From positions 32,001 through 96,000 of IMG/VR virus record IMGVR_UViG_3300043411_001575: a stretch of DNA of 64,000 nucleotides. One strand, written 5' to 3'. The translations under genes were made by a program, and so were the position numbers. Position 1 is the first letter of the stretch, and the number at the start of each line of letters is the position of its first letter. Below the pieces are notes generated by a model, which did not search any database, was not told the origin of the DNA, and worked only from the letters and a program-made list of their open reading frames with translations. This document shows, piece by piece, positions 6,177-33,210 of this stretch. This DNA is from a virus.

Positions 6177-6524
6177 ATGTCAAAAACAGCAACAAAAAAA
6201 GCAAAAGGAAACGAGTTAACAACTATAGTTGATTTAAACCGTATCCAAAATTTATCTTTCGATAACATCTACAACATGGATGAGAAAGAATTATCAAAAC
6301 AAAACTCATATAACCAAAAGAAGATTGGTAAAATGGGGCAGTTGAAAGCGAAAATTATTGATATGCAAAACAGAATTGCAAAATGTGAGCAGCAATTCAC
6401 TGTTTCTTTAACTGACCCTACAATGGACAGTGTTGAATTGCGTATTCAAATTGAATGCTACCAAAAAGAAAAGGAAGTTGCAACTACCTTACTTAAATCT
6501 TTATTTCCTGAAGAATTTGCTTAA
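6177..6524 (+). CDS. hypothetical coiled-coil protein
   Basis: ORF with A-rich leader. Confidence 0.7.
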   Translation: MSKTATKKAKGNELTTIVDLNRIQNLSFDNIYNMDEKELSKQNSYNQKKIGKMGQLKAKIIDMQNRIAKCEQQFTVSLTDPTMDSVELRIQIECYQKEKEVATTLLKSLFPEEFA

Positions 6525-6621: not shown

Positions 6622-7317
6622 ATGCTGATATATAAAATAACAAATAAAATAAATGGTAAAATATACATTGGATTAACTTCAAAAAAAGATATTACTAATT
6701 ATTGGGGGAGTGGAAAAATAATTATGAAATCCATAAAAAAATATGGAATACATAATTTTACAAAGGAAATTTTAGAATTTTGTGATTCTCAAGAAAAATT
6801 AAACGAAAGAGAAATACATTGGATAGATAAATTAAAGAAGGATGGGTATTCTCTTTATAACATTTCAAATGGTGGAAATGGAGGTAATCTTGGGGAAGAG
6901 GTTAATAAACTAATAAGCGATGCTGTTAAAGGAGAAAAGCATCGATTGTTTGGTAAACAAAATCTTAGCAGAAAAGGTAAAGGAGCTTGGAATAAAGGTA
7001 AAAAGAATGTTTACTCAGATGAAACTATAAATAAAATGAAAAAACCAAAAACAGAAGAGCATAGAAAAGCTCTTTCAGTTTCACATTCAGGAAAAATAAT
7101 ATCCGAAGAGCATAAAAAATCTCTTTCAATAGCTTTTTCAGGTGAAAAAAATCCAAGATGTAAAAAAATTGAAGTAGAAACAATATTTGGCGAAAAAATT
7201 AATTTTGAATTTATTTCTCAATTTTTAAATGAACATAAAATTTCTTGGTATTTATTTAGAAATTTAGAAAAAGGGAAAATAGTTAAAATTTTTAAGTCTG
7301 TAAAATATTTAAAATGA
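6622..7317 (+). CDS. GIY-YIG homing endonuclease with NUMOD3 repeats
   Basis: LIYKITNKINGKIYIG, YWGSG, YNI..GG, S/TEEH(K/R)K repeats. Confidence 0.92.
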   Translation: MLIYKITNKINGKIYIGLTSKKDITNYWGSGKIIMKSIKKYGIHNFTKEILEFCDSQEKLNEREIHWIDKLKKDGYSLYNISNGGNGGNLGEEVNKLISDAVKGEKHRLFGKQNLSRKGKGAWNKGKKNVYSDETINKMKKPKTEEHRKALSVSHSGKIISEEHKKSLSIAFSGEKNPRCKKIEVETIFGEKINFEFISQFLNEHKISWYLFRNLEKGKIVKIFKSVKYLK

Positions 7318-7730: not shown

Positions 7731-8203
7731 GAAACAGAACCGACTACTCTGAACTAGAACAAGAGGCTATACATAAGTACCATTATTGTAATGATGAAGT
7801 ATTTAAAGAGTTTTTCCATACACTTTCAAAAAAGGATTCACTCATAGTATCAAGAGTACTTAATATCGGTATTTATAATTTGAATTTTAGCAGCATTGAA
7901 TACACTATAAAATACATGCCATCAGAGATTATGTTTACAAAACAAACATCAGATGTAACAGTTAATCATCACTTTAAATTTGAAATTACTATTGAAGGGC
8001 ATCAAATGGTAATGGGCTATAAGCACTACTTATCAGAAATACCTGAAAATGAAATAGGAGGAACTACAGATATTTGGTGCAATCCATTCGAAGGGGATAA
8101 GATTTCTAATTACCTTATTTCAAAAAAGGTTTCAGCTATTGATTATAGAGATGGGCTGATTAGTATTTATGAGTTCTTAATTGAAAATAACATAATCAAA
8201 TAA
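7715..8203 (+). CDS. hypothetical protein
   Basis: ORF in operon. Confidence 0.7.
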   Translation: MRTVLRNRTDYSELEQEAIHKYHYCNDEVFKEFFHTLSKKDSLIVSRVLNIGIYNLNFSSIEYTIKYMPSEIMFTKQTSDVTVNHHFKFEITIEGHQMVMGYKHYLSEIPENEIGGTTDIWCNPFEGDKISNYLISKKVSAIDYRDGLISIYEFLIENNIIK

Positions 8204-15564: not shown

Positions 15565-15570
15565 ATTTTG

Positions 15571-15656
15571 CGGAAACAGCAGGACTTCAACCTGCACGGG
15601 CTTTTATACCCCTAGCGTTTTTCAAGAACGTGTACCTCTGTCAATTGGGTGCTTCC
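15571..15656 (-). tRNA. tRNA-Ser(UGA)
   Basis: CGTT-CT TGA AA-AACG; long variable arm; G73. Confidence 0.8.
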
Positions 15657-24281: not shown

Positions 24282-24338
24282 TTGACCATTGCAAATATAA
24301 TAACATTTTTGATATTACAAGCAAAAAAGATATTAACA
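24282..24338 (-). promoter_or_regulatory. promoter of the 24.3-16.1 kb minus operon
   Basis: Minus strand TGTTAATA...TATATTTGCAATGGTCAAAT, near-identical to the + strand promoter at 44963-45020. Confidence 0.75.
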
Positions 24339-24349
24339 ATTTTATAGAG

Positions 24350-24423
24350 TGACTATACAAGGACTCCAACCTTGAATCTTCGAGTTCGTAGCCCGATATG
24401 TTATGCGATTACACTATATAGTC
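24350..24423 (-). tRNA. tRNA-Arg(ACG)
   Basis: TCGGG-CT ACG AA-CTCGA; GACTATA/TATAGTC acceptor. Confidence 0.85.
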
Positions 24424-25487
24424 ATTTGTTTTTTATATCTCCTTACCCAAGAAGTAGCTCCACTCTTAGTTAGTCCAAATAAATTCATTATTTTTTTAAC
24501 TATTTTTTTATCATTTATATTAATGTTGTTTTCAGTTAAAATTTGAATTCTATTCTTATTGAACTTAATTGATTCATCTTTCATATTGTCAAAGTATCCT
24601 GATTTAGAACCATATTTCCTAGCCCTTGACAATCCATTTCTATCAGTCTTTTTAAAACACTTTGATTCATAAAAGTCAGGCATAAATTTAGACATCCATC
24701 CTTTAACTTTTTGTGGTATTAAGTCTGTTATTTCACTAACTCTCTTTGCCCATCCAAACTTAGAAAAATCAATATCTGAATTACTTATTATTTCTATTCT
24801 TTTAGAATGTATATTTTTAAAATTAAACTCATTAATACAATCAGTATATTCTTTACGTGATTTACTTTTAAATACTTCTTTTTTCTGTTTAATATAAAAA
24901 GAATAGTCAATATTACCCATATAATATTCATTCTTTAATCCTGAAATTAAATCACTTACAAATGATTTTTTATATATATTTGAATAGTGTATATCAAATA
25001 ATTTCCATCCTAATTCCTCTATTTCTTCTTTTCTTTTTTGATAATATTCTTTTAGAGAACCATCTCTATTATAATGTTGATTTCCATTTACCTCTATACC
25101 TATTTTTTTATCAGGGAATGCAATATCAATACTAAAAAACCTATTATCTAATGGTTTATACTCTTCTACAAAACTAATATCATTTTCAATAAATAACTTT
25201 TTTAAAATTTCACATGGTACAGATTTTAATTTTTCACTTCGTTTCCAAACGCATTTTTCAGGATTTTCTCGTAGATATAAAGACATTTTCAAACTTAAAT
25301 GCTTTCTTAATTCATCACTATGTTTTATTTTATGTTTTATTTTTTTGATGAAACCTTCTCTTTCAGCTCTATTTAATACATTTTTACCAATACCAAATTT
25401 TTTTGTTATTTTAGTCCAAAGTAATCCATTCTCATGTTCTGATTTAATTAAATCCCAATCTATTTTTGTTAAATCTAATCTCTTCAT
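24414..25487 (-). CDS. DUF559/Vsr-like PD-(D/E)XK endonuclease; stop codon lies inside tRNA-Arg 5' end
   Basis: IDIAFPDKKIGIEVNGNQHY...LGWKL. Confidence 0.8.
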   Translation of the reverse strand: MKRLDLTKIDWDLIKSEHENGLLWTKITKKFGIGKNVLNRAEREGFIKKIKHKIKHSDELRKHLSLKMSLYLRENPEKCVWKRSEKLKSVPCEILKKLFIENDISFVEEYKPLDNRFFSIDIAFPDKKIGIEVNGNQHYNRDGSLKEYYQKRKEEIEELGWKLFDIHYSNIYKKSFVSDLISGLKNEYYMGNIDYSFYIKQKKEVFKSKSRKEYTDCINEFNFKNIHSKRIEIISNSDIDFSKFGWAKRVSEITDLIPQKVKGWMSKFMPDFYESKCFKKTDRNGLSRARKYGSKSGYFDNMKDESIKFNKNRIQILTENNININDKKIVKKIMNLFGLTKSGATSWVRRYKKQMTI

Positions 25488-25527
25488 AATATTTATTTTT
25501 ATACAAATATATGAATATTATTTTTAG

Positions 25528-25617
25528 AATCCCCGATAGGAGTCGAACCTACATTATTCTTTTAAAAAGAAAGCAAAATTAGAAGTTTTGTGCATTATCC
25601 ATTTATGCTACGGGGAC
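25528..25617 (-). tRNA. tRNA-Arg(UCU) with extended variable arm
   Basis: CAAAA-CT TCT AA-TTTTG; extra TTCTTT/AAAGAA stem. Confidence 0.85.
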
Positions 25618-25691
25618 ATATATTTATCTACCTCTTCGCAATCTGCGAGAAGTAAAAAAAGTTTTTATGTGCCTTGTAGTTAACATTGAAT

Positions 25692-26093
25692 TTAATTTTT
25701 GATATGTTTATTAAAGGATAACATTAATCCATTTATATTTTCTTTTCCAACAGGATTAGCACTTTGAATATTATACAATGGTAATTTTAATTTATTATCC
25801 AAACAATATTCTACTAACCATTTAGCGCAATCATATCCTGTTTTTTCTTCTTTCTTTAATAATCTTGATTTTCTTTTACTCATTCCTTTTGCCCTAGCTT
25901 CTAAAGCAACTTCCATTCCTAAATCATGGTCAAAACAAATAGCTTCAGGTAATCCATTTTGGTTAATCCAATCAACAAATTCATTATAAGATTTAACCCA
26001 AATACAATCAAAAGGTTTTTCAATCGGACTATATGAAAGCCAATCTCCTTCAAAAGGATTTCTCAAATCATCTAACCATAAAAGTTTTTTCAT
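25692..26093 (-). CDS. cyclic-phosphate-processing receiver-like domain protein
   Basis: LWLDDLRNP, FDHDLG, TGYDCAKWLVE, SANPVG. Confidence 0.8.
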   Translation of the reverse strand: MKKLLWLDDLRNPFEGDWLSYSPIEKPFDCIWVKSYNEFVDWINQNGLPEAICFDHDLGMEVALEARAKGMSKRKSRLLKKEEKTGYDCAKWLVEYCLDNKLKLPLYNIQSANPVGKENINGLMLSFNKHIKN

Positions 26094-26107
26094 TTTAAAA
26101 ATATTTG

Positions 26108-26180
26108 TGGCTCAGGGGGAACTCGAATCCCCAACCCTCGCATTAAAAGTGCGATGCTCTACCGATTAAGCTACTGAACC
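26108..26180 (-). tRNA. tRNA-Lys(UUU)
   Basis: TCGCA-CT TTT AA-TGCGA. Confidence 0.92.
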
Positions 26181-26270
26181 ATATTAATAATTACTTACTC
26201 TTTCGCTTTCGCAAAAAAGAAGATAAAGATTTTATGTTTCTCGTAACTAACATTGTTTTATTTTTTTATG

Positions 26271-26342
26271 TACCCGTTGATAGAATCGAACTACCGACAT
26301 AATCCATGTAAGGGATTCGCTCTACCCCTGAGCTAAACGGGC
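26271..26342 (-). tRNA. tRNA-Val(UAC)
   Basis: AATCC-CT TAC AT-GGATT. Confidence 0.92.
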
Positions 26343-26352
26343 ATTTATTTTG

Positions 26353-26426
26353 TGGAGCGTACAGGATTCAAACCTGTGTAATCTTTCGTGCAAGGAAAGT
26401 GCATAGTCGGACTCTGCCAACACCCC
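26353..26426 (-). tRNA. tRNA-Ala(UGC)
   Basis: CTTTC-CT TGC AC-GAAAG; G3-U70. Confidence 0.9.
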
Positions 26427-26432
26427 ATTTTG

Positions 26433-26505
26433 TGTTCCCTACTTGAATCGAACAAGTGACCTCTCGGTTATGAGCCGAATGCTTCTACCCCTGAGCTAAA
26501 GGAAC
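26433..26505 (-). tRNA. tRNA CAU, probably Ile2 (lysidine)
   Basis: TCGG-CT CAT AA-CCGA; third CAU tRNA; the operon's leader contains an ATA codon. Confidence 0.8.
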
Positions 26506-26514
26506 TAATTAATA

Positions 26515-26760
26515 TTATTCTCTCAATGCATCTCTTATAACTTTATTCTTCTGTGTACGTTTATATTTGTTATATCCGCTACATCCAAAACAATTACAAG
26601 GTCTGCTTGTTGTTTTCAAAAAAGTATAACCATTTCCTGTTAATGCTTTCTTAATTTCTTTTTCGTCATTCCAAGATGGATGAGCGAACCAATTTTTTAC
26701 TCTTCTTTTAAATTTTGTTTCTTGTTTATGCCTATTGTAGGCACGACTTAAATTTTTCAT
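26515..26760 (-). CDS. small basic protein with CxCxxC
   Basis: PCNCFGC; within tRNA operon. Confidence 0.65.
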   Translation of the reverse strand: MKNLSRAYNRHKQETKFKRRVKNWFAHPSWNDEKEIKKALTGNGYTFLKTTSRPCNCFGCSGYNKYKRTQKNKVIRDALRE

Positions 26761-26833
26761 AGCTTCAAGGTTATCACCACTAGCGTAGCTTGGCTAATGG
26801 CTTATAGTTTGAATCTATGTTCTTTTATTGTTT

Positions 26834-27355
26834 TCATTTTTTAGCCTCGATTGATTTTTTAATAATAAAACTTATAGTTCCTTTGCTTTTAATATTTAGT
26901 TTTTCAGCTATTTGCTTATACGAAAGTCCTTCAATATGTAATTTAATTATCTCTTCATGATTGTGCTTCTTTACAAATGAAGTAGCTCTTAAAGCCATTT
27001 TCATTCTAACATCAGAAGGTTTATCCATATTGTTTTCTGAAGCTGTTCCTATTAAAATATTGTCTTTTGAATTATCTTTTTTATTCCCATTTAAATGCCT
27101 AACATGTACACCTTTTTTAAATATTTCATCTCCATATTTTTGATAAGCTACAAGACGATGTACCGAAACTTGTTTTGAAACAGATTTACCATCTATCAAT
27201 ATTCTTCTTGAAATATAGTAATATTTAGTCGTTGTATTAGTGGATAAATTATGCTTTCTTTTTTTATAAAAAACATTCCCTTCTTCATCAACCTTATATC
27301 CTACTCTAACAGCCTCTAATAAAGCTAATGTAGATATTGATTCTTTTATTTTCAT
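26834..27355 (-). CDS. HNH endonuclease with C-terminal HTH
   Basis: VHRLVAY...VRHLNGNKKDN..DN...GTASEN. Confidence 0.9.
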   Translation of the reverse strand: MKIKESISTLALLEAVRVGYKVDEEGNVFYKKRKHNLSTNTTTKYYYISRRILIDGKSVSKQVSVHRLVAYQKYGDEIFKKGVHVRHLNGNKKDNSKDNILIGTASENNMDKPSDVRMKMALRATSFVKKHNHEEIIKLHIEGLSYKQIAEKLNIKSKGTISFIIKKSIEAKK

Positions 27356-27368
27356 TTTGTTATTTTTG

Positions 27369-27442
27369 AGATAATGACCTGAATCGAACAGGTATTTCAG
27401 GTTTTGCAGACCTGTGCCAAAGCCAATATTAGCTACATTATC
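27369..27442 (-). tRNA. tRNA-Cys(GCA)
   Basis: CAGGT-CT GCA AA-ACCTG; U73. Confidence 0.88.
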
Positions 27443-27451
27443 TTTTTATTG

Positions 27452-27524
27452 AGCGAGTAGAGTGAATCGAACACTCATTTCCTGATTGGAAGTCAGGAGT
27501 AATAACACATTATACTATACTCGC
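27452..27524 (-). tRNA. tRNA-Gly(UCC)
   Basis: CCTGA-CT TCC AA-TCAGG; GCG start; U73. Confidence 0.92.
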
Positions 27525-27528
27525 ATTT

Positions 27529-27693
27529 TTGTTATTGGATTCCGTGAGGACAACGTGTACGCAGGTCGTTACCTTCATTATTCTGTCGTTCACAAATGAG
27601 AATCAAATGTATTTACGGATAATTCTGACTACAAAAATTAATTTGCACAGCTTATCAATGGTTGCGCTTACAGGAGCGGATTACCAATAACAA
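27529..27693 (-). ncRNA. candidate structured RNA of about 165 nt in tRNA operon
   Basis: Closed by TTGTTATTGG/CCAATAACAA stem; non-coding; between tRNA-Glu and tRNA-Gly. Confidence 0.45.
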
Positions 27694-27726
27694 TATTTTT
27701 ATTTTCAAAGAACTTAATTTTGTTAG

Positions 27727-27801
27727 TCACCCGTAGCGTGGTCGAAACGCTTTTTAATGGTTGAAAACCATTTGTCCTAACCTACCGTAGACGAACGGGC
27801 G
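27727..27801 (-). tRNA. tRNA-Glu(UUC)
   Basis: AATGG-TT TTC AA-CCATT; TCGTCTA D arm. Confidence 0.88.
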
Positions 27802-28042
27802 TTTTTGAATACCTCAAATGCCTCGTCCGATTCTGTTTTTTCTAATTTTGTTTTCATAATGTTTTTATTTTTTTAATCCAATTATCAGTGGATGCTGTTT
27901 TAAATTTATTTTCAAATTCAACCTCTTTAATTTCTTTGTGAGGTTTTATTTCTGTGTACTTTAATTCTTCTTTTACTACTCTTCCTTTTCTCTTTTTAAC
28001 TAATGGTTTCTTTTCTTCGCTATGAATGTTTCCTTCGCATTT

Positions 28043-28273
28043 TTATTTTTTAGGAGATAGCCAAACTTTTAACCTATTTAAATACCAATCATCTGATTGT
28101 TTTAAGCTCCTATGAGATTCATGCCTATCAACGTCGTGCATCCATCTTTTAAAGATATTATACTTCGCTACTGGGAACTTTTTTTTAATTGAACTATCAA
28201 ATTCAATTTGAGCCATAATTCCTGTAAGTTTTAAATATTTTTTTCCGTAATCTAAATATTCTTCTTTTGTCAT
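28043..28273 (-). CDS. hypothetical protein
   Basis: ORF with A-rich leader. Confidence 0.6.
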   Translation of the reverse strand: MTKEEYLDYGKKYLKLTGIMAQIEFDSSIKKKFPVAKYNIFKRWMHDVDRHESHRSLKQSDDWYLNRLKVWLSPKK

Positions 28274-28292
28274 TTTTTTTGTTTTAAAATTG

Positions 28293-28490
28293 TTATTGCA
28301 AATATATGTAATTTAAACTAATCCGTACAAAATCCTGCTTGGCATCCGCTGCCTGTTCCAAAGTTAAAATCCTGTGCAACCCTATTTTTTTAAATTCAAA
28401 GTAACTACCTTCTTTTTTCCATTCACATTTTGTAGTGCCACATCTTTGCTTCTGACCTATTCTGCAAAATTCAATTTCATTTAACCCCAT
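28293..28490 (-). CDS. hypothetical protein
   Basis: ORF with A-rich leader. Confidence 0.45.
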   Translation of the reverse strand: MGLNEIEFCRIGQKQRCGTTKCEWKKEGSYFEFKKIGLHRILTLEQAADAKQDFVRISLNYIYLQ

Positions 28491-28691
28491 TGTATTTTTT
28501 TTATTTTAATACCACTGAGCAATGGAGAGCAATTCATTTCATTTATCTTCATTATTTGCAAATAACAAAGGACTACTTTACTCTGCTCTTTACCCACTAC
28601 TCAATATTTTAAGAGTACAATTCAAGCTAACTTCCTACACTGAACACCGCTTCAGCAAGGCTTTGAGCCTATTTTAAATTATACTCTTTTG

Positions 28692-28776
28692 CACAAGCGG
28701 TAGGAGTCGAACCTACACATCCCTTTCGGGCAACAGATTTGGAGTCTATCCATCTCTCCATTGTATTAGCACTTGC
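28692..28776 (-). tRNA. tRNA-Trp(CCA) with long variable arm
   Basis: ATAGA-CT CCA AA-TCTGT; CCC-GAAA-GGG variable arm; G73. Confidence 0.8.
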
Positions 28777-28786
28777 GTTTTTTTTG

Positions 28787-28861
28787 CAGTTATGATGGGA
28801 TTTGAACCCACGACCTCTACCGTGACAGGGTAGCATTCTAACCGAGCTGAACTACATAACT
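28787..28861 (-). tRNA. tRNA-Asp(GUC)
   Basis: CTACC-CT GTC AC-GGTAG; G73. Confidence 0.93.
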
Positions 28862-28886
28862 ATTTTTTATTTTAAAGAACTATTTG

Positions 28887-28958
28887 CGTATAGAAAAGGG
28901 TTCGAACCTCTGTAACCTTCATTAACAGTGAAGTGCTTAGCCACTCAGCCATCTATAC
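28887..28958 (-). tRNA. tRNA-Asn(GUU)
   Basis: CTTCA-CT GTT AA-TGAAG; G73. Confidence 0.92.
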
Positions 28959-28969
28959 TTTTTTTCAAT

Positions 28970-29044
28970 TGGTAGCGGAAGGGTGACTCTAACACCCGAC
29001 CTTTGGGATATGAACCCAACGAGCTAACCCTGCTCTATTCCGCA
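28970..29044 (-). tRNA. initiator tRNA-fMet(CAU)
   Basis: GGG/CCC anticodon stem, unpaired 1-72, encoded CCA. Confidence 0.9.
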
Positions 29045-29614
29045 CTGTTTCATTTCATAATGTAGTTCTCTATGACAATTAGAACAAACAATTATGCATT
29101 TATCAAGTTCTTTTTTTATCTTTTCCCAACACGTTGTAGAATATCTTGATATATTAAAATCTTTTTGTTTTGGTTCAATATGGTGGAAATCAAACGCCCA
29201 TATACATTTATCATATCCACATTTTTCACATTTACCACCTTTATATTTAACTGCTTTTTCTTTAATTTTTTGCCGTGCTGTTTTTACTCTCAAATAATTT
29301 CTTTTTTTTCTTTCTTGTGTACTTAAAATTACTTTTTTTACTATTAATTTTAAATATCTTTTTATTCCTGATACAGAAACATTAAATTTTTCTGCTGTTT
29401 GTTTTAATGTATGTGTTTTATAATACTCTTGAACTTTTAATATTTTTTCATCAGATAGTTTCCTTGTATCCATAAGACCTATATATGATAGATTATGGTT
29501 TTTGCAATGATAACTAATAGTAGATGAAGAGCATTTTAGCTTATTTTTTATTTTGCTATAACTCCACCCTTTCTCTCTTAAATTTAATATTTTATTCTTC
29601 AAACCTTTACCCAT
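29024..29614 (-). CDS. HTH-HNH endonuclease; ends inside tRNA-fMet (start 29614)
   Basis: KGGKCEKCGY...FDFHH...ELDKC..VCSNCHRELH; TATATTTG promoter near 29634. Confidence 0.85.
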   Translation of the reverse strand: MGKGLKNKILNLREKGWSYSKIKNKLKCSSSTISYHCKNHNLSYIGLMDTRKLSDEKILKVQEYYKTHTLKQTAEKFNVSVSGIKRYLKLIVKKVILSTQERKKRNYLRVKTARQKIKEKAVKYKGGKCEKCGYDKCIWAFDFHHIEPKQKDFNISRYSTTCWEKIKKELDKCIIVCSNCHRELHYEMKQCGIEQG

Positions 29615-29661
29615 ATAAAAATTATTAATGATACAAATATAGTTAAAAGTTCGATAAATAG

Positions 29662-29735
29662 TACGCAAAGATGGATTTGAACCACCGACCACATGATTAT
29701 CAGTCATGTATTCTAACCAACTGAACTATTTGCGT
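29662..29735 (-). tRNA. tRNA-Ile(GAU)
   Basis: CATGA-CT GAT AA-TCATG. Confidence 0.93.
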
Positions 29736-29749
29736 ATTTAATATTTAAA

Positions 29750-30053
29750 AATGAGAACGCATGTGTGCTTCTTTGCGTTTTTCTCCAACCGCACAGGAAG
29801 GATTTCCAAAAGTGTTTCTCCACTTCCAAAATAAAATCGTATAGCCTCCAATAAAGAAAAGGTTTTGCGCTTTTCGGTCTTGTACCGCCCTGAAACCTCT
29901 GCTCATCTAAGTTATAGACAATTTTAGTTTCATCCAAATTTGGAGCAGTCCTGTTTTTCAACTACATTCATTTATTTTTTTCATAGAGTTTCTATTTCAT
30001 CAGGTCAAGGCTCGAAGCCCCTTTTTCTCACTGACACTCACAGGTAACTCATT
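29750..30053 (-). ncRNA. candidate structured RNA of about 300 nt in tRNA operon
   Basis: AATGAG/CTCATT closing ends, several short GC-rich hairpins, GC-richer than intergenic background. Confidence 0.4.
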
Positions 30054-30109
30054 CTAATCAATTCAGAAAATTCTGAATGATATTTTAATATTTCAAAGAA
30101 CTAAAAACG

Positions 30110-30183
30110 TCCCGACAGCAAGATTTGAACTTGCGACACTTTGGATATGAACCAAATGCTCTACCGAACTGAGCTATGTCGGA
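30110..30183 (-). tRNA. tRNA-Met(CAU), elongator
   Basis: TTTGG-TT CAT AT-CCAAA. Confidence 0.88.
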
Positions 30184-30246
30184 ATATAAGATTCCTTGCT
30201 GCAAGTCCCCGCACTATATCTGCTTTTATGGGGAGGAATCTTTTTG

Positions 30247-30318
30247 AGCCGTGAGAAGGAATCGAACCCTCGTGCGTAGATTACAAATCTACTGCTTTAC
30301 CAACTAAGCTATTACGGC
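30247..30318 (-). tRNA. tRNA-Thr(UGU)
   Basis: GTAGA-TT TGT AA-TCTAC; GCC start. Confidence 0.92.
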
Positions 30319-31025
30319 TAAAATGACTTACCATCTCTTGCTCTTTGTCTCCTACTATGCCTTCCATTACCTTTATTTAAAGCTTTATAATTCAGTGTTA
30401 GTGAATGGCAATTTGGACAAATTAACTCGACATTATCAGAATTATTATTTTTAGAATTTCCATCTTTATGATTTAGTTCAATTGGAACTTTTTTTGTTGT
30501 TTCATTTATTTCGTTCCAACCACACTTCATACACTTTTCACCATACATCAATATCAATGTTCTCTTTAATACAAAATCACTTAATCCGTCCGTATCATTA
30601 TTATTTATCCTTTCAATTAATTTTTTATTTCTGTAATCAGAGCAGCAAACAATAGAACAATATTTTGTAAAATTAGTTTTACACTCACTCTCACAATTCA
30701 CGCATTTTGGCTTCTCTTTTTTTTTCTTTCTAATTCTAAATTTATTAGAAAATGAAGCTGAACATGAATTATTACAAAATTTAGTTCTTACAACACGTTT
30801 GCCATTAATAAAATCAATATTACTAATAGAATTTCCACAATTTAGACACTCAATAATTTTCCTTTTCAAGTTTTCAGAGTAGTATCCTTCTCTATTCAAA
30901 TGATTTTTTATCAATCCCCATGTAAGATTTAATTCTTCCGATATTTGCATATACGTAAATCCTTCTTTAATCATTTTTTTAGCAAAATTTGATTGCTCAA
31001 TTGTTATTTTTCTATTAACACCCAT
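30318..31025 (-). CDS. HNH endonuclease; TAG overlaps first base of tRNA-Thr
   Basis: IELNHKDGNSKNN...N...CPNCHS; paralog of 13121. Confidence 0.9.
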   Translation of the reverse strand: MGVNRKITIEQSNFAKKMIKEGFTYMQISEELNLTWGLIKNHLNREGYYSENLKRKIIECLNCGNSISNIDFINGKRVVRTKFCNNSCSASFSNKFRIRKKKKEKPKCVNCESECKTNFTKYCSIVCCSDYRNKKLIERINNNDTDGLSDFVLKRTLILMYGEKCMKCGWNEINETTKKVPIELNHKDGNSKNNNSDNVELICPNCHSLTLNYKALNKGNGRHSRRQRARDGKSF

Positions 31026-31132
31026 TTGTTTTTAATAATTAGTTGAAATACAAATTTAACAAAAAAAATAAACAAAGTCAATAATTCAAATAAAACTATT
31101 GGCTCAATACATATTTTCAAAGAACGTAAAAC

Positions 31133-31162
31133 AAAAAGCCCCAACTTTTTAGGTTGAGGCTT
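31133..31162 (-). terminator. attenuator terminator of the 16-tRNA operon
   Basis: Minus strand AAGCCTCAAC-loop-GTTGGGGCTT plus T run. Confidence 0.85.
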
Positions 31163-31186
31163 CTGTGTTTGTATTTTTATGTTTTA

Positions 31187-31297
31187 TTACACTCCCATTG
31201 TCGTAATTAAACAATACACAGATGCCCCTTGAGTACACGCCTTATCGCCCGTATTCTCTGACCACATATTTTCCACTATAATATTTCTGCGTTTCAT
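31187..31297 (-). CDS. leader peptide MKRRNIIVENMWSENTGDKACTQGASVYCLITTMGV
   Basis: 36-codon ORF after TATATTTG promoter (~31340); first 22 codons include all 13 amino acids of the downstream tRNAs. Confidence 0.85.
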   Translation of the reverse strand: MKRRNIIVENMWSENTGDKACTQGASVYCLITTMGV

Positions 31298-31401
31298 TAT
31301 TTTTATTATTTATTACCACACCATGTAGTAATGAGCTGCAAATATACAACTATTGTTTTTTTAAATGCAAATTTATTTTCAATTATTTTTTCATTTTACA
31401 T

Positions 31402-31759: not shown

Positions 31760-32044
31760 TTAAACGAAATTAGCGATTCCATTGGTAATAATGTAGTGAC
31801 TCCTACATTCAAATAACTGTTGTAATGATGGCTTCACTGTTAATTTACCATTTTCATTATCAATAGACCACTCGCCTTGTTTAATTGGTATTGGAGCTTT
31901 TACACCACATCCACATAGGCATAAATGATTTGCAACTCCGTATTCTTTTGAATAGTATAGTTTTCCAAATTCTAATTCATCAGGCATAAACTCATCATCA
32001 TTCAATTCTATAAGTTCTATTGGAACTCTTTTTAGCGTTTTCAT
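31760..32044 (-). CDS. DUF6527-like Cys/His protein
   Basis: HLCLCGCG...LTVKPSL....CRSHY. Confidence 0.75.
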   Translation of the reverse strand: MKTLKRVPIELIELNDDEFMPDELEFGKLYYSKEYGVANHLCLCGCGVKAPIPIKQGEWSIDNENGKLTVKPSLQQLFECRSHYIITNGIANFV

Positions 32045-32713: not shown

Positions 32714-32728
32714 GCATCAAATATAAAC

Positions 32729-32760
32729 AAAAAACCTGAAACAATTAAGCTTCAGGTTTC
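32729..32760 (-). terminator. intrinsic terminator after tmRNA
   Basis: AAACCTGAA-loop-TTCAGGTTT plus T run on minus strand. Confidence 0.75.
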
Positions 32761-32764
32761 TTTT

Positions 32765-32985
32765 GAACCTCTTTCGAGGGCTGAGAATGTTCCCCACTAG
32801 GGAAGATTAAGCAGCTAATTTTACTTCGCCATTTAAGACTTGTGAGTTTCTAATTTAGTTTTCCTTACGCTGTCAAAACCGTGCGCACCCATGTGTAATA
32901 CTCATCATTGGTGGAAGCGGAGAGATTCGAACTCTCGTCCAAACATAACTATTAAAAAATTTCATGTATAAATACAAACGAAACT
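32765..32985 (-). ncRNA. ssrA: tmRNA, circularly permuted two-piece gene; tag (A)GEVKLAA
   Basis: T arm/acceptor GAGAGTTCGAATCTCTCCGCTTCCACCA ends at 32909; 18-nt spacer; 5' piece GGGTGCGCACGGTTTTGACAGC starts at 32890; G3-U70; tag at 32830-32807. Confidence 0.88.
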
Positions 32986-33210
32986 CGATGCAAATATACA
33001 AAATTATTTGATTAGTAAAAAAAGAAAACCCCGCAATGGAGTGAGCGGGGCTTTCAAAGGCAAACCATCTAATTTTATACGGTCAAATACTAGAGAAGAT
33101 GATGTGGTTGCGGTACAAATGTAGTAACATGATTCTAATCATTAAAAAATAAAATCAGTGCTTTATCAACATGGTTTTTAACATTCGTATTTATTGAATG
33201 CTTTTGTAAA

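Follow-up and report, generated by a model that had tools for sequence, protein, structure and literature searches.

A likely leader-peptide attenuator with a 13-amino-acid panel at the head of a phage operon of 16 tRNA genes

What is the element and what would it control?

This report concerns a short leader on the minus strand of a 64,000-nucleotide (nt) stretch of viral DNA, positions 32,001 to 96,000 of the IMG/VR record IMGVR_UViG_3300043411_001575; by 'the window' we mean that whole stretch, and coordinates refer to it unless another sequence is named. The source record (169,658 bp, 30.7% G+C) is probably that of a large phage of the host phylum Bacteroidota. Its transfer RNA (tRNA) genes, a transfer-messenger RNA (tmRNA) gene aside, all lie in three minus-strand blocks, and the leader stands at the head of the largest. 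We consider it likely that this leader is a ribosome-mediated (leader-peptide), multivalent transcription attenuator of the 16-tRNA operon behind it; put simply, the phage probably makes this set of tRNAs when ribosomes stall for lack of one of them.

This reading is built on things that can be seen directly, namely the sequence elements, their alternative pairings, the conservation of these and the match between the content of the leader and that of the tRNA block. An earlier note, made from the sequence of the window alone, had already placed an attenuator here, and most of that proposal survives: the promoter, the mini-frame, an antiterminator set against a terminator, the tRNA genes behind them and a panel of amino acids that recurs in eight relatives all bear it out, but its inclusion of codons 20-22 among the sensors probably does not hold up, as discussed below. 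The genes that the leader would control are as follows.

24349..30318, minus strand: putative controlled unit, made up of 16 tRNA genes and, scattered between them, small genes, an HNH gene and a cREC_REC gene

The 16 tRNAs are listed as Thr, Met, Ile, fMet, Asn, Asp, Trp, Glu, Gly, Cys, a tRNA with the anticodon CAT, Ala, Val, Lys, Arg-UCU and Arg-ACG, and no further minus-strand terminator was found between 31134 and 23325. The leader itself has these parts, in the order in which they would be transcribed.

31339..31378, minus strand: Bacteroidota-type promoter, a strict match to the consensus, with AAATAAATTTG (31378..31368, including the -33 TTTG), 21 nt and the -7 box TATATTTG (31346..31339)
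31312..31332, minus strand: 5' stem-loop of the transcript, nine pairs with the loop UGG, just upstream of the mini-frame and present in both the minimum free energy (MFE) and the centroid folds
31187..31297, minus strand: leader reading frame, 36 codons plus TAA, with the ATG at 31297 and the TAA at 31189..31187
31235..31294, minus strand: panel, codons 2-21, with all 13 operon amino acids and one Ser
31286..31292, minus strand: region 1, ACGCAGA, codons 2-4, paired with UCUGUGU of region 2 in the full-leader MFE fold (duplex -10.7 kcal/mol)
31216..31228, minus strand: region 2, the 5' arm of the antiterminator, GGGGCAUCUGUGU, codons 24-28, complementary to region 3
31180..31213, minus strand: inner hairpin between regions 2 and 3 in nascent-RNA folds, holding the last codons and the stop codon
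31156..31168, minus strand: region 3, ACACAGAAGCCUC, its last nine bases shared with the 5' arm of the terminator
31128..31164, minus strand: intrinsic terminator with a 12-pair stem (31164..31134), loop CUAAAAA, U-tract UUUUUGUUUU and a hairpin of -15.0 kcal/mol
31117..31126, minus strand: boxA-like motif CGTTCTTTGA, directly after the terminator

On the minus strand the order is thus promoter, 5' stem-loop, frame, terminator, boxA-like motif, HNH gene and then the 16 tRNA genes. As in known attenuators, the promoter is followed by a short open frame that has a start and a stop of its own, and an intrinsic terminator separates that frame from the genes to be controlled. The ATG sits 42 nt past the -7 box and is preceded by an A/U-rich unstructured stretch. 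The extended -33 motif also heads two sister modules in the window (16058 and 14233) and the homologous leaders of five related phages (L126, L128, L130, L200 and L202). In the alignment the 5' stem-loop shows a compensatory change from C-G to A-U in L120 and from U.G to U-A in L116; it is absent from the sister modules, and it might serve as an RNA stabiliser or a pause element.

How could this RNA act as a switch?

The pairing on which the switch would turn had been claimed in the earlier note, and we can confirm it: GGGGCAUCUGUGU and ACACAGAAGCCUC pair at 12 of 13 positions with a single A.A mismatch, and nine bases of the second arm overlap the 5' arm of the terminator. The duplex of regions 2 and 3 is worth -21.9 kcal/mol (z = -4.7), and not one of 300 shuffles was as strong. 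Folding predicts that nascent RNA lacking region 4 forms the 2:3 helix, whereas the full RNA forms the 1:2 pairing together with the terminator, and the same alternation is predicted for L116, L126, L128 and L130. The antiterminator is therefore built as in classical leaders, from the 3' part of the frame and the 5' arm of the terminator, although exclusion of one structure by the other is only partial because seven of the 12 pairs of the 2:3 helix lie upstream of the terminator core. When a ribosome footprint is masked during folding, a ribosome with its aminoacyl (A) site at codons 22-32 gives a terminator probability of 0.95 and one at codons 20-22 gives 0.79-0.95, compared with 0.41-0.70 for codons 1-19.

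Is translation needed at all for such a device? Alternative terminator and antiterminator structures placed before genes of the translation apparatus are just what one would expect of an RNA with a tRNA or a protein as its direct ligand, be it a switch like the T-box or an attenuator that depends on a protein. We think this very improbable, for the leader matches no T-box or other known riboswitch in Rfam, either at the gathering threshold or at E values up to 10, and the conserved open frame, start context and codon make-up would be needless in an untranslated switch. The best Rfam match is instead Thr_leader (RF00506), at 30.4 bits and E = 8.5e-4 over 31130..31217 on the minus strand; this falls below the 55-bit gathering threshold, and the likeness is one of shape only.

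Does the leader read the codons that its operon serves?

A distinctive feature of this leader is what it encodes. The first 22 codons are exactly as the earlier note described them, with K, R, N, I, V, E, M, W, T, G, D, A and C present, one S, and no Q, F, P, L, H or Y; the two Arg codons are CGC and AGA and the two Ile codons ATT and ATA, as a direct reading of the frame verifies. What has to be corrected is the end of the frame, which was put at codon 22: there are 36 codons, and the 14-codon tail includes Q, S, Y and L. Within the panel, codons 4-21 alone, a mere 18 residues, contain all 13 amino acids of the operon, each of which is offered one to three codons, so that here too the regulatory codons correspond to the products of the controlled genes. 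The one foreign codon, codon 13 (TCA), belongs to the tRNA-Ser(UGA) of a neighbouring operon.

How surprising is such a panel? Among random sets of 21 codons that follow the codon usage of this phage, the full set of 13 amino acids turns up with p = 1.5e-4, the full set with no more than one foreign residue with p = 1e-5, and codons for all 15 elongator tRNA species with p = 1.5e-6. When the nucleotides of the leader itself are shuffled, a control that takes its purine richness into account, p is 1.3e-4 for codons 2-21 and 3.4e-3 for the frame as a whole; the whole-frame values together lie at about 7e-4 to 3e-3. Only one of 38,473 windows of 18 residues in the phage's long reading frames contains all 13. 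A purine-rich composition as the cause of the amino-acid bias was considered and rejected, since the own-operon fraction expected under nucleotide shuffles is just 0.68-0.74 and p is at most 0.018 for every leader, relatives included.

What do the relatives tell us?

The relatives used are related uncultured phages found through three neighbouring proteins, and one of them is a 375-kb contig binned in a metagenome-assembled genome of Bacteroidota. Homologues of the neighbouring proteins number 28 to 56. Together with the window they supply nine distinct leaders, three of the window type (the window, L116 and L196) and six of a second type (L126, L128, L130, L198, L200 and L202). Other searches were less rewarding. 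No close relative was found in GenBank phages or in IMG/VR, and the 222-amino-acid neighbour protein had no IMG/VR matches. The cREC_REC and DUF7448 genes, used as probes, led to 108 loci, all of unrelated phages, and a simple scan of eight tRNA-rich cREC_REC loci, of L053 and L064 and of all tRNA-rich DUF7448 loci turned up no leader/terminator modules. Degenerate leader DNA patterns of either clade had no IMG/VR match, the window-type pattern had none in the Joint Genome Institute (JGI) metagenomes, and the other leader patterns, run against GTDB genomes and metagenomes, returned just contigs already known or a duplicate.

Where leaders do occur they always head the tRNA block, and tRNA order is preserved in L126, L128, L130, L196, L198, L200 and L202. 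The homologous frames of the eight relatives have 35-43 codons, and M1, I7 and W12 (the single Trp) are invariant, even though leader identity across the two clades is only 16-23%. All nine leaders keep a Cys codon, the single Trp codon and the antiterminator/terminator design, and seven contain all 13 amino acids. Pooled over the nine, own-operon residues make up 85.4%, compared with 68.4% expected; Cys occurs at 3.2 times and Trp at 1.95 times the expected frequency, whereas F, H, L, P, Y and S stand at 0.16- to 0.62-fold and Gln is at expectation (1.0-fold). The panel is also mobile within the frame. All 13 amino acids are packed into 18 residues in L196 and 20 in L200, at positions unlike those of the window, and between the window and L196 both Val and Ala have been lost at one site and gained at another. 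Residue turnover of this kind looks like selection for composition rather than for sequence, as the tight packing of all 13 at differing positions in the window, L196 and L200 would suggest.

The closest comparison, with L116, separates the parts of the leader further. The panel has one synonymous change in 63 nt, the tail eight changes in 48 nt, five of them amino-acid changes (Fisher p = 0.0097), and region 3, terminator and boxA-like motif together have none in 52 nt. Region 2 of L116 is altered (GCA to UCU) yet keeps 12 of 13 pairs, and its 2:3 duplex reaches -24.3 kcal/mol (z = -5.2); the duplexes of the other relatives range from -11 to -19 kcal/mol, and their p-values run from 0.01 to 0.19. 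Region 2 of a given lineage always resembles the 3' arm of the terminator in the same leader. When pairs are counted over seven aligned sequences against a stated structure, the terminator stem is 97% paired with four compensatory pairs, which none of 500 shuffles matched, and the antiterminator is 84% paired in register compared with at most 59% when the partner is slid, one of its pairs appearing as C-G, U.G and U-A. RNAalifold returned no consensus structure over all nine sequences, since region 2 sits at a different place in each of the two clades. In leaders of the second clade the frame start UUACAAGU pairs with the frame end ACUUGUAA, and this accounts for the foreign Leu and Gln that they conserve at codons 2-3.

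Could the frame simply be a small protein gene, or the unit a small RNA with its own terminator, with nothing sensed and the tRNAs made through leakage past the terminator or from promoters elsewhere? In favour of this are the three invariant residues, a peptide alignment that can be recognised over nine sequences, the strength of the terminator and the promoter-like matches within the operon. We nevertheless find the idea decidedly unlikely. The C-terminal third varies freely as peptide while its RNA pairings are kept, the N-terminal conservation of the second clade is accounted for by the start-end pairing, and the leader peptide matches no protein family. The element, moreover, always heads a tRNA block, and its architecture occurs three times in this genome with codon runs that match the tRNAs downstream.

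Those repeats are the two sister modules, paralogues in which the promoter motif recurs together with a short frame, a terminator and CGTTCTTTAA. The frame of the first carries the run QQFFPQQPQF before tRNA-Pro, -Phe and -Gln; that of the second carries SLHSYLSLY before tRNA-His, -Ser, -Ser, -Tyr, -Leu and -Leu. Both frames have, in their 3' part, a segment complementary to the 5' arm of the terminator that follows, and the codon runs are kept in four to eight relatives. The three leaders split the 20 amino acids as their operons do. One gene in the second block is easily overlooked.

~15566-15655, minus strand: tRNA-Ser(UGA) gene, read by eye and missed by ARAGORN and by Rfam at the gathering threshold

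With it, the Ser/Leu/His/Tyr block has its full six tRNA genes.

A natural experiment is offered by L126, which has the only leader without Arg, Q and M replacing the R of its nearest relatives. In none of the other genomes, moreover, does the promoter motif occur a second time inside the tRNA block.

L126 12573-12760: second promoter, followed by a frame of 21 codons, six of them for Arg (CGG, CGC, CGA, AGA, CGA, AGG), with the core LRLRRRR

This Arg-rich frame directly precedes four Arg tRNA genes, and no canonical terminator was found 3' of it. Arg has thus gone from the main leader in the very genome whose Arg tRNAs have an Arg-rich leader of their own, which is as a codon-matching model predicts.

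What speaks against sensing of particular codons?

A number of observations weigh against the attenuator as we describe it, and several of them would suit a simpler device, a generic sensor of translation rate in which the switch is real and the codon make-up unselected, so that read-through would follow whenever ribosomes slow down or translation is lost. To begin with the panel, one or two codons per amino acid mean low sensitivity, and a rate sensor can point to the very fact that each amino acid has just one to three. The GGC codon is a non-standard match for tRNA-Gly(UCC) under wobble rules. Every leader has foreign codons, foreign residues making up 9-20%, and besides the Arg-less leader of L126 there is that of L202, which lacks internal Met. 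For the S, L, H and Y residues of the L202 leader we considered a merged operon as the source, and this fails because L202 has a Ser/Leu/His/Tyr leader of its own. The whole-frame statistics are moderate (p = 3e-3 by nucleotide shuffling), and all p-values across leaders are non-independent because the nine are homologous. The duplex p-values are just 0.06-0.19 in four relatives, and antiterminator covariation judged against column shuffles of the seven sequences is not significant.

The geometry of the window copy is a second difficulty. Even without any ribosome the nascent RNA already favours the antiterminator, as a rate sensor would have it. In the window and in L116 the stop codon is 26 nt beyond the 13-nt arm (18-20 nt past the extended duplex), so that a finishing ribosome, which covers region 2 only if the stop is within about 15 nt, does not do so in these two; in L196, L126, L128, L130, L198 and L202 the distance is -3 to 7 nt, and there it would. 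In the window a ribosome at the stop leaves region 2 free, with an equilibrium terminator probability of 0.43, like that of early stalls. Equilibrium folding with a ribosome mask was accordingly discarded as a discriminator, for in the window copy an early stall and a ribosome at the stop codon look alike to it, and discrimination would have to be kinetic, a matter of timing rather than of stop occupancy. Codons 20-22 (Ala, Cys, Thr) are the part of the panel that suffers, since they include its only Ala and Cys codons and lie too close to region 2: in the footprint model a ribosome stalled there probably masks the antiterminator arm rather than freeing it. The effective sensor zone of the window copy would on this modelling be about codons 2-19, with 11 of the 13 amino acids.

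Finally, strict matches to the promoter consensus TTTG-N-TAnnTTTG occur at three further sites, two of them inside the operon, and one of these two lies in a spacer of some interest.

28331..28299, minus strand: promoter-consensus match inside the tRNA operon
27635..27604, minus strand: promoter-consensus match inside the tRNA operon
24325..24292, minus strand: promoter-consensus match just before the DUF7448 gene
27525-27725, minus strand: untranslated spacer of about 200 nt between tRNA-Glu and tRNA-Gly, starting with a boxA-like motif and apparently highly structured

Judged by sequence, the matches at 28331 and 27635 might be internal promoters that feed the distal tRNA genes independently of the leader; the one at 27635 sits in the structured spacer and may be a chance match.

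We still regard a generic rate sensor as unlikely. It would not account for the enrichment of own-operon residues and depletion of six of the seven other-operon amino acids (Gln being the exception) across nine diverged leaders, nor for the retention of Trp and Cys codons in all nine, nor for 13 amino acids packed into 18-20 residues in three lineages. Arg is missing exactly where the Arg tRNAs have an Arg-rich leader to themselves, and the sister leaders are plainly codon-matched.

How might the proposed attenuator work?

From these elements we infer how the frame would be translated, where ribosomes would stall, what read-through would follow and what might trigger it. Transcription would start a few bases past the -7 box, and the 36-codon frame would be translated behind the moving RNA polymerase. 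A ribosome proceeding smoothly would be on codons 22-32, covering region 2, as regions 3 and 4 emerge; the terminator would then form and transcription end at about 31128. A ribosome stalled anywhere in codons 2 to about 19, for want of a charged tRNA, would leave region 2 exposed, so that it could pair with region 3 ahead of the synthesis of region 4; this pairing would block the terminator and let polymerase into the operon, probably aided by the boxA-like site. Since each served amino acid has one to three codons in the leader, shortage of any panel tRNA would raise synthesis of the whole set, and the build-up of tRNAs would shut the operon down again.

The boxA-like motif deserves a word of its own. 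It recurs after the other two terminators (15867 and 14028) and inside the operon (30102, 28881 and 27714), and by analogy it may bind Nus factors. Antitermination in ribosomal RNA (rrn) operons by boxA and Nus factors is the obvious comparison, with GTTCTTT(A/G)A found here after each terminator and within the untranslated operon; the likeness is of sequence only.

What kind of shortage would matter in an infected cell is a further question. Nuclease attack as the trigger is speculation, albeit one that fits the cREC_REC gene in the operon, an RtcB gene elsewhere in the genome and recent work on tRNA-targeting defence. The earlier note's idea that the leader would answer only to severe loss of a tRNA is likewise speculative. 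In its fullest form the idea would be that the three attenuators are three alarm circuits that sense the loss of particular host tRNAs, for example by anticodon-nuclease cleavage, each inducing the matching replacement set; this is possible, and we hold it only tentatively. Were it true, phage tRNA supply would be an inducible counter-defence rather than a constitutive compensation for codon usage, and the replacement set of this operon would be co-transcribed with the RNA-repair-linked cREC_REC gene.

How does it compare with known systems, and why does it matter?

Leader-peptide attenuators are of course familiar from amino-acid biosynthesis. Like thrL (Thr, Ile) and the ilvGMEDA and ilvBN leaders (Leu, Val, Ile), the phage leader has a translated short frame between promoter and intrinsic terminator, four pairing regions with an antiterminator overlapping the 5' arm of the terminator, and more than one amino acid sampled. 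It differs in what it precedes, tRNA genes rather than biosynthetic enzymes; in its panel, 13 amino acids with one to three scattered codons each in place of runs; in belonging to a phage of Bacteroidota; and, in the window copy, in a stop codon well past region 2, whereas in trpL a ribosome at the stop covers the arm. Control of a gene of the translation apparatus by the supply of charged tRNA through a leader peptide has a precedent in the pheST attenuator of Escherichia coli with its pheM leader, although there a single amino acid is sensed through a run of Phe codons and the target is a synthetase, not tRNAs. T-box riboswitches likewise report tRNA status through competing terminator and antiterminator structures in a leader, but they bind uncharged tRNA directly and without translation, and the phage leader has no T-box features. 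The Bacteroid-trp leader motif is a predicted leader-peptide attenuator in Bacteroidota, and attenuation of this type is thus to be expected in the probable host phylum; unlike the phage leader, with which it has no match, it is host-borne, serves a biosynthetic operon and senses one amino acid.

Full-text literature searches found no description of leader-peptide control of tRNA genes. To judge by the sequence, what would be new here is the use of ribosome-mediated attenuation of the classical kind on phage tRNA operons, where a compact panel of 13 amino acids replaces the codon run, and leader-peptide attenuation would be extended both to RNA genes of the translation apparatus and to a compact, sub-pangram design.

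Why phages carry tRNA genes at all, whether to compensate for codon usage or to replace tRNAs destroyed by defences, has been a matter of debate for about 50 years (PMC10264068, PMC11464382, PMC11555353). If the leader reads the codons that its operon serves, then the phage would be measuring decoding capacity and making tRNAs on demand. Such a model predicts operon-specific induction and makes the purpose of phage tRNAs testable, with three leaders that partition the 20 amino acids in one genome as a built-in control. Leaders of this kind could also be compact natural sensors of tRNA availability.

What else lies nearby?

Several neighbouring genes and spacers are worth recording.

30318..31025, minus strand: HNH homing-endonuclease gene (phrog_1271, E = 6.8e-16), between the leader and the first tRNA gene
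25692-26093, minus strand: cREC_REC gene (cyclic-phosphate processing receiver, PF20274), inside the 16-tRNA operon
G000:C1 25001-26362, plus strand: RtcB-type tRNA ligase gene (phrog_1075), same genome, outside the window
26515-26760, minus strand: 81-amino-acid frame with no family match, 52-96% identical to 28 database proteins
32716-33002, minus strand: circularly permuted tmRNA gene with the tag GEVKLAA, upstream of the leader
L126 ~7196-7222, L130 ~1476-1500, L196 ~6412-6436 and L198 ~8084-8110: ATCGGGTAGGAAAATCCTGA motif, with no Rfam match

The HNH gene is probably an insertion, since in L128 the first tRNA gene lies within about 50 nt past the terminator. In relatives, the 300-400 nt of untranslated spacer from the boxA-like site to tRNA-Thr carry the motif ATCGGGTAGGAAAATCCTGA followed by GGATAACGAA, which may be an unknown structured RNA; in the window its place is taken by the HNH gene.

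With cREC_REC and RtcB, this phage combines two RNA-repair-linked genes with a near-complete set of tRNAs. The 81-amino-acid frame lies no more than about 10 nt upstream of the third tRNA gene with a CAT anticodon, a putative tRNA-Ile2, in the window, L126, L130 and L200, and the two are separated by other genes in L128 and L196. Genes for tmRNA occupy the same place in the relatives, with tags that differ.

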